Assembly (NCBI RefSeq): GCF_056746865.1
Contig: NZ_CM163382.1
Length of the DNA stretch: 64,000 nucleotides
Direction: 5' to 3' (one strand)
This document shows positions 5,924-63,826 of this stretch, in pieces. Under the pieces are notes generated by a model. It was not told the origin of the DNA. It worked only from the letters and a program-made list of their open reading frames with translations, and did not search any database. Each line of letters starts with the position of its first letter. The first letter of the stretch is position 1. The position numbers and the translations under genes were made by a program.

Positions 5924-6574
5924 TTATTCTTTTTTACCTGCCTGACGGAATGTCAGGTTGTAGCGGCAGTCGGTGGTGAGTGGATGAAACCCCGCTTTCA
6001 ACGGTTGAATGCCATGATAAAACAGCCGCGATTCACCGCCCCATACCACCACATCGCCATGTTCCAACAACAAACGTTTTAGCGGATCATTTCGTTTCAG
6101 GCCGCCAAATTGAAAAATCGCGGGTAAGCCCAGAGAAACAGAAACAATCGGCGCGCGCAGATCCGGTTCGTCTTTATCCTGATGCAGCGACAGTTTCGCG
6201 CCAGGAGCGTAGCGGTTGATAAGACAAGCATCTGGCTGGAAATCTGGATAGCCCGCCGCCGTAGCCGCACGTTGACATAAATCATGAAAGCTTTGTGGCA
6301 TGGCGGGCCACGGTTTATTTGTTTGCGGATCAATGGGCGAATAGAGATAACCTTGCCGATGGGTCGTCCAGCCCAGATGCCCACAGTTGGTCATCGCCAC
6401 CGACATGGTATATCCGCCTGGAGTGACCATCTGGCGAAACGGCGACTGGCTGGCAACATCATTAATATCGCGGATCAGTTGCTCCGCAGCGTTAAAAGTA
6501 AAACGCCGTAAAATTACCGCACCAGCCGCCAGAGGCTCTTGCCACGGTTCAGCATCGGCAAACAGATCCAACAT
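5924..6574 (-). CDS. alkB: AlkB, Fe(II)/2-oxoglutarate-dependent DNA/RNA demethylase (216 aa)
   Basis: Translation MLDLFADAEPWQEPLAAGAVILRRF...; start codon overlaps ada stop (TAATG). Confidence 0.92.
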   Translation of the reverse strand: MLDLFADAEPWQEPLAAGAVILRRFTFNAAEQLIRDINDVASQSPFRQMVTPGGYTMSVAMTNCGHLGWTTHRQGYLYSPIDPQTNKPWPAMPQSFHDLCQRAATAAGYPDFQPDACLINRYAPGAKLSLHQDKDEPDLRAPIVSVSLGLPAIFQFGGLKRNDPLKRLLLEHGDVVVWGGESRLFYHGIQPLKAGFHPLTTDCRYNLTFRQAGKKE

Positions 6575-7699: not shown

Positions 7700-7725
7700 C
7701 AATCTTGCGCTTTAATTTTTTTCGC
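7700..7725 (-). promoter_or_regulatory. ada promoter with Ada box (AAATTAAAGCGCA on reverse strand)
   Basis: Reverse complement of 7706-7713 is AAAGCGCA preceded by AAATT; about 70 bp upstream of ada start; overlaps the 3' end of apbE. Confidence 0.55.
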
Positions 7726-57625: not shown

Positions 57626-58585
57626 ATGACCGAATCAACAACCTCCTCCCCGCATGATGCGGTGTTTAAAACCTTTATGTTCACACCCGAAACCGCTCGG
57701 GATTTTCTGGAAATACATCTACCAGAGCCGCTGCGCAAGCTTTGCAACCTGCAAACTTTACGCCTGGAACCCACCAGCTTTATTGAAAAAAGTTTACGCG
57801 CTTACTACTCGGATGTTTTGTGGTCTGTGGAAACCAGCGACGGTGAAGGCTATATCTACTGCGTGATTGAACATCAAAGCTCTGCAGAAAAGAATATGGC
57901 TTTTCGGCTAATGCGCTATGCCACTGCCGCCATGCAGCGTCACCTGGATAAAGGCTATGACAGAGTTCCGCTGGTGGTGCCATTGCTGTTTTATCATGGC
58001 GAAACCTCGCCCTACCCGTACTCACTCAACTGGCTGGATGAGTTTGACGATCCGCAACTTGCCCGGCAGTTGTACACCGAAGCTTTTCCGTTGGTGGATA
58101 TCACCATCGTACCTGACGATGAGATCATGCAACATCGGCGTATAGCTCTGCTGGAACTGATTCAAAAGCATATTCGCGACCGCGATTTAATCGGTATGGT
58201 CGACAGGATCACCACGCTTTTGGTTAGAGGCTTCACTAATGACAGCCAGCTACAAACGCTGTTTAATTATCTGCTGCAATGCGGCGATACCTCCCGTTTC
58301 ACCCGCTTTATTCAGGAGATTGCCGAACGTTCACCACTACAAAAGGAGAGATTAATGACTATTGCTGAACGGCTGCGGCAGGAAGGACATCAAATTGGCT
58401 GGCAGGAAGGTAAAATTGAAGGTTGGCAGGAGGGGAAATTGGAGGGGTTGCAGAAAGGCAAAGTAGAAGGTATGCATGAACAAGCCATTAAAATTGCCTT
58501 GCGCATGCTGGAACAGGGCTTTGAACGTGAGATTGTGCTGGCGACAACCCAACTCACTGATGCTGATATTCCGAACGGTCATTAA
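57626..58585 (+). CDS. rpnE: RpnE (YfaD), Rpn/YhgA-like recombination-promoting nuclease, PD-(D/E)xK transposase_31 family (319 aa)
   Basis: Translation [28 protein letters not shown]...YCVIEHQSS...; C-terminal repeat region [15 protein letters not shown]. Confidence 0.85.
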
Positions 58586-58597
58586 AAGGAGAGATTA

Positions 58598-58795
58598 ATG
58601 ACTATTGCTGAACGGCTACGGCAGGAAGGACATCAAATTGGCTGGCAGGAGGGTAAATTAGAAGGTTTGCAGGAAGGCATGCATGAACAAGCCATTAAAA
58701 TTGCTTTGCGCATGCTGGAACAGGGCATTGATCGTGACCTGGTGCTCGCGGCCACCCAGCTAAGCGAAGCCGATCTGGCAGCGAATAACCACTAA
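58598..58795 (+). CDS. ypaA: YpaA, small protein (65 aa) that is a tandem duplicate of the RpnE C-terminal module
   Basis: Translation [43 protein letters not shown]... nearly identical to the last ~77 aa of RpnE; own AAGGAGAG Shine-Dalgarno. Confidence 0.8.
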   Translation: MTIAERLRQEGHQIGWQEGKLEGLQEGMHEQAIKIALRMLEQGIDRDLVLAATQLSEADLAANNH

Positions 58796-58835: not shown

Positions 58836-59639
58836 TCAATAACTACCTTTTATGCGTGGCCCATTTTTGCCTGATTTAAACATCGCCAGTCGTTGATCCA
58901 GGGCATCGCTGTAGAGCATCGTGTCAACGCCAACAGCGACAAAGTTCGCTCCCCACGCCAGGCATTGCTGCGCCATATCAGGAGCCACAGCCAGAAAACC
59001 AGCCGCTTTACCCGCAGCACGGATCCGCCGAATGCTGGTTTCAATAATTCGCTGCACTTCCGGGTGCCCGGCGTTATCCGGGTAGCCCAACGAGGCAGAA
59101 AGATCCGCAGGTCCAATAAACACGCCGTCAATCCCTTCGACGTCGAGGATTTCGTCCAGGTTATCCAGTGCTGTTTTACTTTCCACCTGCACCAACAGAC
59201 AAAGCGAATCGTTGACTTGCGCCATGTAATTCTCAATGCGTCCCCAGCGCGCAGCCCGTGCCACACTGGCCCCGACACCACGCTCACCGTAGGGAGGATA
59301 GCGCGTGGCAGACACCACCTGACGTGCCTGATCGGCAGTATCGACCATCGGGATCAGTAGAGTTTGCGCGCCAATATCCAGGACTTGTTTAATCAGCGAC
59401 TTACTGCCTTCCACCGGACGGATCACGGGTTGGCTGGCATAGGGCGCTACCGCCTGTAGCTGGTGATAAAGATCCTGAATGGTGTTTGGCGCGTGCTCCC
59501 CGTCAATCAGCAACCAGTCATAACCGGAGGTGGCGGCAATTTCTGCCATATAAGAAGTAGTCGAGCTTAACCACAGACCAATTTGCACTTCGCCCTTGCG
59601 TAAACGTTCTTTAAAGGGATTGGTTAATAATGCGTTCAT
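58836..59639 (-). CDS. rhmA: 2-keto-3-deoxy-L-rhamnonate aldolase (267 aa)
   Basis: Translation [49 protein letters not shown]... (HpcH/HpaI aldolase family). Confidence 0.9.
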
Positions 59640-59655: not shown

Positions 59656-60897
59656 TTAATGATGTGCCACGTCGGTCTGCGCAACAGTGCGATTTACACG
59701 CAGAGTGAAAATAATCAGCGAACCGATGACCGCCACCGCTGCCAGCGTCAGTAATCCCGCCGCATCGCTGGCAAACAACGTTTCTGCTTTCACGCGCAGG
59801 ATCGGGGCAATAAACCCACCCACTGCACCAAACAGGTTTACAAAACCAATCCCCGCCGCCAGCGCCGTACCGGAAAGCAGTTGTGTCGGCATCGTCCAGA
59901 ACACCGGCTGCACGGCAATAAACCCGATGGCTGCAACACACAGCGCTACGATCGCCAGTACTGGAGAAAGCAGCCCGGAGAGACCAATACCAATGCCTGC
60001 CGCCAGTAATGTCAGCGCCGCGACATTACGCCGTTCGCCGGTTTTATCGGAATAGCGCGGAATAAGCCAGGTCCCAAACAAGGCCGCGACCCACGGAATG
60101 GCGGTGACCACCGACGCCGTAAAGCCCACTTTTGTCCCCAACAATGCAGCAACCTGCGTCGGCAGGAAGAAAATTAATCCGTAAACCGCCACCTGAATGG
60201 TCAGGTAGATAATCGCCAGTTGCCAGACTCGCCCATTACGCAGCGCATCGCTCAGTCGAGAAGTCACTTTCTGTTGTTCTTCACTTGCCAGTTGGTTGAT
60301 AAGCAACGTTTTTTCTTCTTTACTCAGAAAACGTGCCTGCTCCGGCGTGTCATCAAGCCAAAAGAATGTGAATACCCCAGCGCCGACTGCCAGCAATCCT
60401 TCAATCACAAACATCCAGAACCAGCCGGGATGCCCCATAAATCCATGCATCTCCAGCAGCGCGCCGGAAAGCGGTGATCCCAGTGTTAACGCCAACGGTG
60501 CGCCCATATAGAACAGCCCCATAATGCTGGCGCGATTACGCTGCGGAAACCATTGCGAGGTGAGATAAATCATACCAGGGAAGAACCCGGCCTCCGCAGC
60601 ACCAAGCAGAGTGCGAACGATCAGAAATTTCGCTTCAGTATCGGCCCATGCCATGGCTGCCGAAAGAAATCCCCACAGCAGTGTTGTCGTACCAATCCAG
60701 GTTCTGGCCCCCAGTTTGCGCATCAAAAGATTCGCCGGAACACCCAGAAACGCATATACCACAAAGAAAATGCCTGCTCCCAGCGCATAAGCTTCATTAC
60801 TCAGCCCGGTATCAATCTGGTAGGTTTGTTTGGCAAAACCGATATTCGAACGGTCGAGAAACGCCAGCACATACAGCGCCAACTTGACATCCTCCAC
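59656..60897 (-). CDS. rhmT: L-rhamnonate MFS transporter RhmT, apparently 5'-truncated; ORF begins at a GTG inside the IS end
   Basis: Translation starts [24 protein letters not shown]..., lacking the usual cytoplasmic N-terminus and part of TM1; frame continues upstream into IS sequence. Confidence 0.75.
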
Positions 60898-62635
60898 GCC
60901 CTGAAGAACGTGGATCCCTGCTACGTTCAGGCTGTCGCCTGAATCATTTCGGTGGGTTCCTGCTTCAACGAGCGGCCTGACTGCACCATCTCTCCACAGG
61001 CAAGAACGGCGTGCCCCGCCGCTAAAATGTTACGAGCGCCATTTACATCGGCGTTCGCTGTATATCCACATACCTGGCATCTGAATTGACTTTGTGACAG
61101 GCGATTTTCTTTCGCAGTATGACCACAGCACGCGCAACGCTGGCTTGTGTACGCTGGCGGAACAGCAAGCAACTGACCGCCACTCCAGAGCTGCTTGTAC
61201 TCAAGCTGGCGGCGCATTTCATACCAGCCCTGATCCAGTATCGAACGGTTTAAACCTGATTTTGCCCGGACATTGCGCCCCGGCTGGCTGAGCGTACCCG
61301 CTGCTGACTTTGACATGTTGCTGACCTTCAAATCCTCAATGACTATCATTGCGTGGTTTTTGCTGACGGTCGTTGTGACTTTGTGAAGGTAGTCCCTGCG
61401 GATATTTGCGATACGGGAATGCAGTCGCTGTATTTTGCGTTTCTGCTTCTGCCAGTTGTTGCTGAATTTGACCCTGCGGCTTAACTGTCGCTGAAGTCTC
61501 GCCAGCTTCTTCTGGTTTTTCTGAAAACTGTTTACAGGCTCAAAGACTGTGCCATCTGACAGCGTGGCGAGTTTAGCCACGCCAGCATCCAGCCCGACCA
61601 TTGATGCTGAAGGGTGAACCGGAGTTGATACTTCACTTTCTGTCTGAATACTGATGTACCACTTACCGCAGGACTGGCTGACAGTGACATTTTTTACAAC
61701 ACCCGTGACCTGACGGCTGTTCCGGTAGCGCATCCAGCCCAGTTTCGGCAGAAAAATACGGCTGTTTTCCTGATCGAGCTTAACGCCCTGCGGATAGCGG
61801 AATGCATCATTCTGTCCCCGCTTTTTGAATCGGGGAAAAGCAGCCCGATTCTGGAAGAAGTTTTTGTAAGCCCGCTCAAGGTCTTTCAGTGACTGTTGCA
61901 ATGGCTGTGAGGGCGAATCTTTAAGCCATTGCGTTTCAGTGGCGTTTTTCCACTCAACCAGCCAGGAAGCCATTTTCCCGTAAGGGATGTATTTATTACC
62001 GGCCTCATGATTCTCATTCTGAAGCGCCAGAGCGCGATTGAAAACGAAACGACATGCGCCTGCGAAGCGCCTCATTTCACACTCCTGTTGACCACCTGGT
62101 CTTAACTGGAATTTAAATGCCTGTAATCGTTTCACAGGTCAAATGATACTTTGGTCTATGAAAAAAGAAACCGATATCCGGCGTGGAAGGCATTGTGTTT
62201 TCCTGATGCATGTTCACCTGGTCTTTGTCACCAAATACCGACGCCAGATTTTTGACCATGACGCGACAGAAAAACTACGCACTTACTTTTCAAATGTATG
62301 TGCTGATTTTGAAGCTGAACTGGTTGAAATGGATGGCGAACCAGATCACGTCCATTTGTTAATTAACTATCCTCCCAAACTGGCGATATCCAGTCTGGTA
62401 AACAGCCTCAAAGGCGTATCGGGTAGGTTACTGCGACGAGATCGACCAGATATTGCAGTCAGGTATTACTACAAAGGCGTTTTGTGGAGTCCTGGCTATT
62501 TTGCCAGTAGCTGCGGAGGTGCGCCAATATCCGTCATCCGCCAATACATTGAACAACAGCAAACACCTGGTCAGGTGGAAAACCGCGCCTTATATCCCCG
62601 CCCTGAAGGACGGGGTTTTACAGCGCACTGGATAA
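60887..62635 (-). mobile_element. IS200/IS605-family insertion sequence (~1.7 kb) with divergent tnpB and tnpA; boundaries approximate
   Basis: TnpB and Y1-transposase ORFs; both ends carry the same-orientation 17-nt motif CGCCCTGAAG(A/G)ACG(T/G)GG (60897-60913 and 62599-62615) embedded in imperfect hairpins. Confidence 0.75.
60927..62135 (-). CDS. tnpB: TnpB (OrfB), RuvC-like RNA-guided nuclease of the IS200/IS605 family (402 aa)
   Basis: Translation [37 protein letters not shown]..., C-terminal zinc-finger CACCGH...CQVCG and [10 protein letters not shown]. Confidence 0.88.
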
Positions 62636-62748
62636 AGTCATGGACTCAACAACCTCAATCCAGCCATGCTCACTGGCGATGTCCTGGCCGTTTAACCAAC
62701 GGCGCAGCATATTCAGTGCCATCATTGCGCACACTTCCTGACGGATAG
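62158..62748 (+). CDS. tnpA: IS200-like Y1 (HuH) transposase TnpA; 3' end uncertain, ORF reads through the element end into yfaY antisense
   Basis: Translation MKKETDIRRGRHCVFLMHVHLVFVTKYRRQ...HVHLL (HuH)...YYYKGVLWSPGYFASSCGGAPISVIRQYIEQQ; ORF is ~50 codons longer than typical TnpA. Confidence 0.65.
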   Translation: MKKETDIRRGRHCVFLMHVHLVFVTKYRRQIFDHDATEKLRTYFSNVCADFEAELVEMDGEPDHVHLLINYPPKLAISSLVNSLKGVSGRLLRRDRPDIAVRYYYKGVLWSPGYFASSCGGAPISVIRQYIEQQQTPGQVENRALYPRPEGRGFTAHWIKSWTQQPQSSHAHWRCPGRLTNGAAYSVPSLRTLPDG

Positions 62749-63826
62749 CCAGGCTGTAGCGCGTAGTGCTGAAACGCACACGCAGAGCGAAAGTGCCGTC
62801 TGGCGTGGCTAGCGCAAAGTTGAGATGTTCGTTCTCGAAACCAGAAACAGCCAGTGCCAGCCCGGCAAAATGGTTGGCCCGCCGTTCTGTAATCCAGTGC
62901 GCAGTTTGCGCCAGGGTTTCCTCCTGTGAAGGAACCACTTCACACGCCAGCAATGGAGCACCTGCGCGAGAAAGTTGCAAAGCCAATAAACCACCGGTGA
63001 ATTGCTCGCTCAACGTCAGGCTGAACTGGCGGTTTTGCAATTCGCGGCTGATCTGCGAGGGCAGTCCTTCGGTACCTTCGAAAATCACGCTCTGTCCGGC
63101 AACACGTTTAACGTCCAGCCACAGTTTTTCCATCGCCTGTTTCTCGCTTGCCGGTCCGGTGAGTTTCAGTTCGATAATCGGCATAGAAGAGCGATAGCCC
63201 ATTGTTACCCCCGGCGGCAGTTGCAGGGTGTCCAGGCTTTGTGCCAGATCGCTTTCCGAACGACCAAATGTAGTCAAACGCAGACAAACCGGCGGCTGCG
63301 GTAAAGAAAAACGCTCGCGCAGGCGCGGCAGGATTTCGTGCTCGACCATCACCTTAAATTCTGACGGTACGCCGGGGGTAAAGAACATCAGGCAACGATT
63401 AAGCTGCACGGCAAAACCACAGGCGGTGCCTACCGGGTTATTGATAAATTCAGCACTGGCAGGTAGCTCCGCTTGTTTACGGTTGCTCGGTGTCATTACT
63501 CGTCCACGTTCGTGGAAATAGCGTTCCATCTCTTTGAGCCAGGCCTCATGCAGCACCAGGCCTTCACCTTTTGCTGTTGCAGCGGCGAGTGCGCTTAAAT
63601 CATCACTGGTCGGCCCCAGCCCGCCGTTAACGATCAGCACATCGGCGTGCTGACTCCGTTCGCGAAGAATGGTCACTAAGTCATCAAGGTTATCTCCCAC
63701 CGTATTGCGGCGAGATAATGGCAACCCCTGATGAAAGAAAAAATCGGCCAGCCAGGCAGCGTTAGTGTCAACGATTTGCCCGTGTAACACTTCATCCCCG
63801 GTGGATAGCATTTCCACTTTTAACAT
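62618..63826 (-). CDS. yfaY: YfaY, CinA-like molybdopterin-binding (MoCF) domain protein (402 aa)
   Basis: Translation MLKVEMLSTGDEVLHGQIVDTNAAWLADFFFHQGLPLSRRNTVGDNLDDL...; stop abuts the right-end IS hairpin. Confidence 0.85.
   Translation of the reverse strand: MLKVEMLSTGDEVLHGQIVDTNAAWLADFFFHQGLPLSRRNTVGDNLDDLVTILRERSQHADVLIVNGGLGPTSDDLSALAAATAKGEGLVLHEAWLKEMERYFHERGRVMTPSNRKQAELPASAEFINNPVGTACGFAVQLNRCLMFFTPGVPSEFKVMVEHEILPRLRERFSLPQPPVCLRLTTFGRSESDLAQSLDTLQLPPGVTMGYRSSMPIIELKLTGPASEKQAMEKLWLDVKRVAGQSVIFEGTEGLPSQISRELQNRQFSLTLSEQFTGGLLALQLSRAGAPLLACEVVPSQEETLAQTAHWITERRANHFAGLALAVSGFENEHLNFALATPDGTFALRVRFSTTRYSLAIRQEVCAMMALNMLRRWLNGQDIASEHGWIEVVESMTLSSAL

Follow-up and report, generated by a model that had tools for sequence, protein, structure and literature searches.

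An IS609 copy in place of rhmD and rhmR in Escherichia coli, with both deletion ends at IS609 target motifs

Introduction

Single-strand “peel and paste” transposition has its studied models in the insertion sequences (IS) IS608 of Helicobacter pylori and ISDra2 of Deinococcus radiodurans. Both excise and insert in the lagging-strand-template orientation, and the IS200/IS605 family as a whole is reportedly active on that template. The target motif is TTAC in IS608 and TTGAT in ISDra2, and the right end of IS608 finishes TCAA. The subject of this work is a copy of IS609 that lies in a 64,000-nucleotide stretch of DNA (NCBI RefSeq assembly GCF_056746865.1, contig NZ_CM163382.1; the window, on which all coordinates are given unless stated otherwise) and interrupts the L-rhamnonate operon rhmRDTA. 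Like IS608 and ISDra2, this copy has a Y1 HUH transposase (TnpA), a TnpB protein and subterminal hairpins in place of inverted repeats; its insertions likewise lie directly 3' of a short motif of fixed sequence, here (T/C)TTAT, without duplication, and its right end, like that of IS608, finishes TCAA. Its two genes are transcribed divergently, the IS605 arrangement, and do not lie in tandem.

Three further systems invite comparison. IS609 of E. coli K-12 (at ydcO/ydcL, genes insQ/tnpA) is 97.9% identical to the window copy over 1753 aligned bases and has the same ends, the same divergent tnpA and tnpB and the same TTTAT 5' of its left end. It differs in its location and in an internal stop in tnpA, and the flanks of the window copy stem from sites 2348 bp apart; the window copy evidently marks a deletion, not a simple insertion. 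DDE elements such as IS1, IS5 and IS26 likewise leave one IS copy between non-adjacent flanks, with genes lost, through IS-IS recombination or intramolecular transposition. However, such deletions leave mismatched target-site duplications, whereas the window shows no duplication and two target motifs on the same strand. TnpB2 of ISGst2, from Geobacillus stearothermophilus, has TTTAT as its transposon-associated motif (TAM), and a guide RNA read from the right-end flank directs the nuclease to cut the IS-free allele (Meers et al., bioRxiv 10.1101/2023.03.14.532601). Host and element are different, and the TAM is the same as the target motif of the window IS609.

Comparison with K-12 and with 5426 complete E. 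coli genomes makes it nearly certain that the window carries an IS609-dependent, target-site-defined replacement of 2348 bp between two same-strand TTTAT motifs. Literature searches on IS609 and on TnpB with TTTAT turned up no account of the allele and no biochemical work on IS609.

Target rule and junctions

Against the K-12 locus sequence (L002, on which the K-12 coordinates are given), BLAST divides the window into three segments: the rhm side up to 60883, IS609 over 60884-62636, and yfaY from 62631. What is absent relative to K-12 is L002 6092-8439, exactly 2348 bp, comprising 62 nt at the start of rhmT, the spacer between rhmT and rhmD, all of rhmD, all of rhmR, the 219-bp rhmR-yfaY intergenic region and the final codon and stop of yfaY. 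The operon is left incomplete, with only rhmA and a 5'-truncated rhmT, and its promoter is expected in the lost 219-bp region upstream of rhmR, the first operon gene.

A sequence-only reading of the window had already put an IS200/IS605-family element in the position of rhmD and rhmR, with both genes missing and the operon reduced to rhmA and a damaged rhmT, separated from its regulator and promoter. The K-12 alignment and junction mapping that it called for agree with it on all of these points. K-12 and 3825 other genomes have both genes at this position, BLAST against K-12 finds no rhmD or rhmR sequence in the interval, and rhmR has gone together with the region expected to hold the promoter. 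The location it gave, 60887-62635, was right, but its ends were off by up to 4 bp:

60884-62631, minus strand (top strand, tnpB sense): full-length IS609, IS200/IS605 family, 1748 bp, delimited by BLAST, copy alignment and filled and empty sites.
62632-62636, minus strand: TTTAT target motif (the expected TAM) at the left end, in the yfaY codons ACT TTA TC., known from IS-free genomes.
60868-60883, minus strand: rhmT sequence GTTGGCGCTGTATGTG at the right end, from junction alignment.

The insertion rule of the element can be read from other sites. At yfeD/gltX (TTTAT) and yeaQ/yoaG (CTTAT), the sole difference between filled sites and the empty sites of K-12 is the 1748-bp element, with no duplication, and the mobile unit so defined is CCRGTG...GGATGTCAA. 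The yajI site shows the same insertion pattern with one motif base changed, TTTAT when filled and TTGAT in K-12, a difference that is probably a polymorphism. These comparisons show that IS609 enters 3' of (T/C)TTAT, with its left end beside the motif and without target-site duplication. The possibility that TTTAT belongs to the element itself, suggested by CTTAT at yfaY and TTGAT at yajI in K-12, was rejected: the empty yfeD/gltX and yeaQ/yoaG sites of K-12 retain the motif, and there are IS-free genomes with TTTAT in yfaY.

Both junctions in the window look canonical but stem from different target sites, which lie on one strand with 2348 bp between them: the TTTAT at the yfaY 3' end and that found 62 nt into rhmT. 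The left end abuts the former motif, the right end abuts the base after the latter, and the element is intact at both ends. The yfaY site reads GAC TTTAT followed directly by CTGTCTGA in the closest IS-free relative, 18KM2445, and in one further genome, and has CTTAT as its motif in K-12. On the other side, the right-end flank GTTGGCGCTG directly follows CCGTTTAT in intact rhmT of both K-12 and 18KM2445. A search of the window for TTTAT plus GTTGGCGCTGTATGTG found a sole match, the junction itself, with GTCAA of the element replacing TTTAT; a target for the expected guide of this copy is no longer present in the window.

Could the far end of the deletion lie on a target motif by accident? In the 4397 positions that follow the yfaY site on its downstream side there are 16 (T/C)TTAT sites (12 TTTAT and 4 CTTAT), and a chance endpoint would therefore fall on the motif in only about 0.3-0.4% of cases. 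Adjacent deletions are common beside many IS types, which speaks for one canonical insertion followed by an unrelated illegitimate deletion. Such a deletion would nonetheless have to end at the element terminus to the base on the near side and, on the far side, to the base at a target motif that occupies 0.27-0.36% of positions, which makes this course of events very improbable. The junctions indicate instead that IS609 target specificity set both deletion endpoints. The strand also fits, in that GC skew in the window is negative (-0.044) and the top strand of IS609 therefore lies on the lagging-strand template.

Distribution of the allele and other losses of the operon

A megablast search with 60500-63000 gave 100% identity to strain 042 (NC_017626.1) and many other E. 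coli genomes. The full arrangement with both junctions is present in 189 of the 5426 genomes, strain 042 included (megablast), and among the matches listed the alignment was single and contiguous in 30 of 30. A yfaY-yfaZ region at least 99% identical to that of the window occurs in 180 genomes, all of them inside the 189. The next-best yfaY-yfaZ match is 18KM2445, whose flanks are 98.5% identical, which is IS-free and in which rhmRDTA is intact. This distribution suggests that the allele arose once and became fixed in a single clade, with about 189 genomes sequenced. The yfaV gene of strain 042 is annotated at this locus together with insQ/TnpB, tnpA (as a pseudogene) and yfaY.

That the lineage never had rhmD and rhmR, as an ancestral arrangement or through import of a block, is hardly credible. 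Nothing speaks for it beyond the yfaY-yfaZ allele of the clade, at least 1.5% diverged from all others, and the rhmT remnant and the yfaY gene broken off mid-gene at the IS ends contradict it. The full operon is moreover found in the nearest relative and in the 3825 genomes (of 5426) that cover at least 80% of the deleted segment. The sequence-only reading had named an IS-free ancestral arrangement of the same kind as a sign against itself; 18KM2445 has the intact operon instead, and this deletion was found without the IS in none of the 5426 genomes.

Intermediates were sought through the joints that each should leave. Two synthetic junctions served as single-site queries, one that places IS609 after the yfaY motif and keeps rhmR whole, the other that places it after the rhmT motif and keeps rhmD whole; the diagnostic joints are the right end plus CTGTCTGATTCC for an insertion at yfaY only, GCGTTTAATTCCGTTTAT plus the left end for one at rhmT only, and GACTTTAT running directly into GTTGGCGCTG for an IS-free deletion. 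No cross-junction match to the rhmT-only query was obtained in the 5426 genomes, and the precise IS-free yfaY-rhmT joint was likewise found in none. The 80 genomes that covered at least 80% of the IS-free-joint query were rejected, as they carry a different deletion between 12-bp repeats.

The missing IS-free joint bears on the idea that the deletion came first, by slippage between the 5-bp TTTAT repeats, and that IS609 entered later after the TTTAT that remained. The joint so made would hold a valid target motif, and IS-free rhm deletions do occur (through the 12-bp repeats GCCTGCTCCCAG and in a 3863-bp loss). However, with the joint in 0 of 5426 genomes, a microhomology of 5 bp that is weak, and one TTTAT to be chosen from tens of thousands (an estimate extrapolated from the local frequency to the genome), we consider this order of events improbable.

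Of the two IS-free losses, one, in about 80 genomes, removes 1728 bp between 12-bp direct repeats, GCCTGCTCCCAG, in rhmT and rhmR (K-12 L002 ~5980-5991 and ~7708-7719; the joint is at ~1639-1650 of the locus sequence L016 from E. coli 2014C-3338), and it has the form of a classic, independent microhomology deletion. The other removes 3863 bp, with one end within rhmA and the second end 64 bp upstream of the stop codon of yfaY (K-12 L002 4505-8367), as seen in E. coli O111 RM9322 (locus sequence L015, 2040-2572). Estimated from the share of this deletion in a ranked match list, its carriers number about 1300 of the 5426 genomes, and O111, O26 and similar strains are frequent among them. Together the IS-free losses affect about 1400 genomes. 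These alignments indicate that the rhm operon has been lost at least three times independently and that its loss is common in E. coli.

Route of the replacement

The replacement could have arisen in one step by TnpA, through a canonical insertion followed by deletion of the flank; this is the route that we favour, and we give it an even chance. IS609 would first insert canonically after the yfaY TTTAT. TnpA, acting on single-stranded DNA, would then cleave the right end as normal and make its second cleavage at the TTTAT 2.3 kb downstream instead of the TTTAT beside the left end. Strand exchange, proceeding as it normally does, would join the right end to GTTGGCG... and free the rhmR-rhmD segment as a circle. 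Such a course needs a single insertion and the chemistry of excision, with no new chemistry.

Several observations weigh against it. We are aware of no publication that demonstrates flank deletion of this kind by an IS200/IS605 TnpA. The Prokaryotic Genome Annotation Pipeline (PGAP) calls tnpA of strain 042 a pseudogene, and the gene has lost its native stop. IS609 at the yfaY site only, with the operon intact, was found in 0 of 5426 genomes, which leaves the order of events undocumented. No IS609 movement was seen in K-12 mutation-accumulation lines (PMC5009759). Finally, recombination between two direct-repeat copies yields the identical product.

This last alternative posits that IS609 entered both TTTAT sites in like orientation and that RecA-dependent homologous recombination between the 1.7-kb direct repeats then deleted one copy and the intervening 2348 bp. 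It predicts precisely the junctions seen, and the same-strand orientation that it needs is the one expected for the IS200/IS605 family. In E. coli, recombination between IS copies is a frequent event (4.5e-5 per genome per generation; PMC5009759). Many genomes hold two or three IS609 copies, with up to nine places. Against this, it requires two rare insertions 2.3 kb apart and then a recombination; both single-insertion alleles are missing from the 5426 genomes, and strain 042 has one IS609 place only. We judge two-copy recombination to have somewhat less than an even chance of being the actual route. Sequence alone cannot separate it from the one-step TnpA route.

A compound reading, somewhat less likely than not, joins both proteins of the element. 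In it a TnpA side reaction not on record would have used the downstream TTTAT and excised the 2.3-kb flank, and TnpB with its guide would now cut any incoming intact rhmT, which would lock in the loss.

IS609 copies and ends

The top strand of the window copy reads 5'-CCAGTGCGC...GGATGTCAA-3'. Seven further copies at five other loci are 97.3-98.5% identical to it end to end and have identical termini, so that the eight aligned copies represent six loci, all with the same ends. PGAP labels two of the compared copies “IS609”, and identity to IS609 was judged against these named copies and the tabulated length. The IS609 coordinates in PMC6963479 also give 1748 bp. The window element is, by these sequence comparisons, identified as the known IS609 of E. 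coli, which puts the family assignment of the sequence-only reading on firm ground.

With IS609 alone as query, matches of about 98% appear in nearly every E. coli genome, the K-12 ydcO/ydcL copy included; many genomes have two or three places, and the maximum is nine. The window holds no second IS609 copy. In strain 042 a single place matches the IS609-containing query, and most genomes with the allele show two or three; the rhm-locus copy may be the sole IS609 of strain 042, with the ydcO/ydcL site empty.

The element lacks terminal inverted repeats: its two termini, CCAGTG... and ...TGTCAA, do not match in inverted orientation. Each end instead has a subterminal hairpin that is kept in all copies, and the loop motif TTCAGGGCG is common to the two:

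62596-62615, minus strand: left-end hairpin CCCCGTCC-TTCA-GGGCGGGG, 16 nt inside the left end, from DNA folding and copy alignment.
60893-60914, minus strand: right-end hairpin TCCACGT...GCGTGGA, 9 nt in from the terminus, from DNA folding and copy alignment.

In the top-strand DNA fold the left-end hairpin reaches -12.2 kcal/mol (z = -2.3). The right-end hairpin has a 7-bp stem and a weak z of -1.2.

TnpB, TnpA and the putative omega RNA

The coding content also agrees with the sequence-only reading, which had described a TnpB open reading frame (ORF) on the minus strand and a divergent Y1 ORF on the plus strand, some 20 bp apart, between rhmT and yfaY. The annotated start codons are 7 bp apart, and the distance is 22 bp when counted from the second Met of tnpA.

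60927-62135, minus strand: tnpB (insQ), 402 aa, intact ORF, RNA-guided endonuclease; from the ORF list, NCBIfam and a PDB search.
62143-62748, plus strand: tnpA, Y1 HUH transposase with intact catalytic core, 201 aa against a native 143; from the ORF list, NCBIfam and a PDB search.
60884-61000, minus strand: putative omega RNA scaffold, covering the tnpB 3' end and continuing to the terminus on that side, placed by its position.

TnpB matches NCBIfam NF040570 (guided_TnpB) over residues 7-372 with 388 bits (cut-off 100) and, in the PDB, TnpB of ISDra2 (8bf8/8exa) over residues 3-376 (E 7.8e-55). Its translation shows sequences resembling the usual RuvC motifs and a CxxC...CxxC zinc finger; the RuvC-like motif residues we take to be catalytic from what is known of the family.

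TnpA matches NCBIfam NF033573 (transpos_IS200) with 146.8 bits (cut-off 55) over profile positions 2-126 of 126, and PDB searches returned TnpA of IS608 (2a6m, 2vjv) and of ISDra2 (2xm3). In alignment with Sulfolobus-type transposases (2f4f, 2ec2), the HUH motif HVHLL pairs with HIHLF and the catalytic-Tyr motif RQYIEQQ with KKYIEEQ. Because the window copy has CAG in place of the TAG stop at native codon 144 (62572-62574), the frame stays open for 58 more codons, across the left end and into antisense yfaY. Among the eight aligned copies the stop position is TAG in two and CAG in six, the window copy included. TnpA of the CAG variant exits the left end and gains a tail that depends on the insertion site; three of the six CAG copies (K-12, strain 755 and RIVM_C036569) have internal tnpA stops. 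The window tnpA, unlike the K-12 copy, has no internal stop. The stop-less variant is found at at least four different loci, which suggests past mobility, its own or mobilised in trans.

Over 60871-61000 on the minus strand, which covers the putative omega RNA, Rfam gave only sub-threshold matches, to RAGATH-18 (29.5 bits; gathering 44.9) and HgcC (20.1 bits; gathering 50). The RNA fold of the region (z = -1.3) is not significant against shuffles, and the copies are too alike for covariation.

Flanking genes

59656-60883, minus strand: rhmT (yfaV) remnant without its first 62 nt (21 codons), from K-12 BLAST.
58836-59639, minus strand: rhmA (yfaU), intact ORF, without rhmD, rhmR and the upstream intergenic region; from the ORF list.
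62618-63826, minus strand: yfaY, 402 aa instead of 400, from the ORF list and K-12 BLAST.

The rhmT homology stops at 60883, which is L002 6091, whereas K-12 rhmT extends to 6153, and the residues missing from the RhmT N-terminus are MSTALLDAVVKKNRVRLIPFM. The only in-frame starts are GTG at 60897 and CTG at 60930, each within the IS. PGAP keeps rhmT (yfaV) “intact” by way of the CTG, which overlaps the tnpB stop and adds 16 IS-encoded residues. Neither rhmA nor the body of rhmT contains a stop or a frameshift, and most of what distinguishes them from relatives is synonymous; in rhmA, 11 synonymous and 4 non-synonymous differences, and no stops, separate the window from K-12. At the other end, the last 14 nt of yfaY (62618-62631, stop included) are left-end sequence of IS609, and the YfaY C-terminus is ...TLSSAL in the window against ...TLSV in K-12.

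Further along, in the rpnE/yfaD and ypaA region (57626-58795), RpnE has 319 aa in the window and 299 aa in K-12. The BLAST matches to K-12 are short and internally repeated there (58341-58428, 58450-58530, 58584-58655 and 58669-58758), which suggests a repeat expansion at the 3' end of rpnE and in ypaA.

Implications

The allele is an ordinary lineage-specific, IS-associated gene loss by a known IS, already visible in public annotation; the motif-to-motif geometry is its one point of some interest, for how the deletion was made. With the rhmD dehydratase gone, the L-rhamnonate pathway would be lost, and the regulator and what is presumably the upstream promoter region went with it. The remaining rhmT'-rhmA pair lacks an upstream region of its own and follows immediately after tnpB, with which it shares its strand, and would therefore be expressed only by read-through. 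A working L-rhamnonate pathway would thus be missing from strain 042 and from about 3.5% of the complete E. coli genomes despite the annotation of rhmA and “yfaV” as intact, and the YfaY annotated in them bears an IS-derived tail.

For the IS200/IS605 family, the locus offers a natural example of target specificity fixing both ends of a deletion. The right end together with the downstream TTTAT is a specific substrate on which to ask whether TnpA deletes flanking DNA. As for TnpB, the omega RNA of the window copy is expected to carry the guide GTTGGCGCTGTATGTG... at its 3' end (GUUGGCGCUGUAUGUG). If TnpB is active, this guide would direct cutting of intact rhmT alleles, in which TTTAT is followed by GTTGGCGCTG... 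(target TTTAT plus GTTGGCGCTGTATGTGCTGG).

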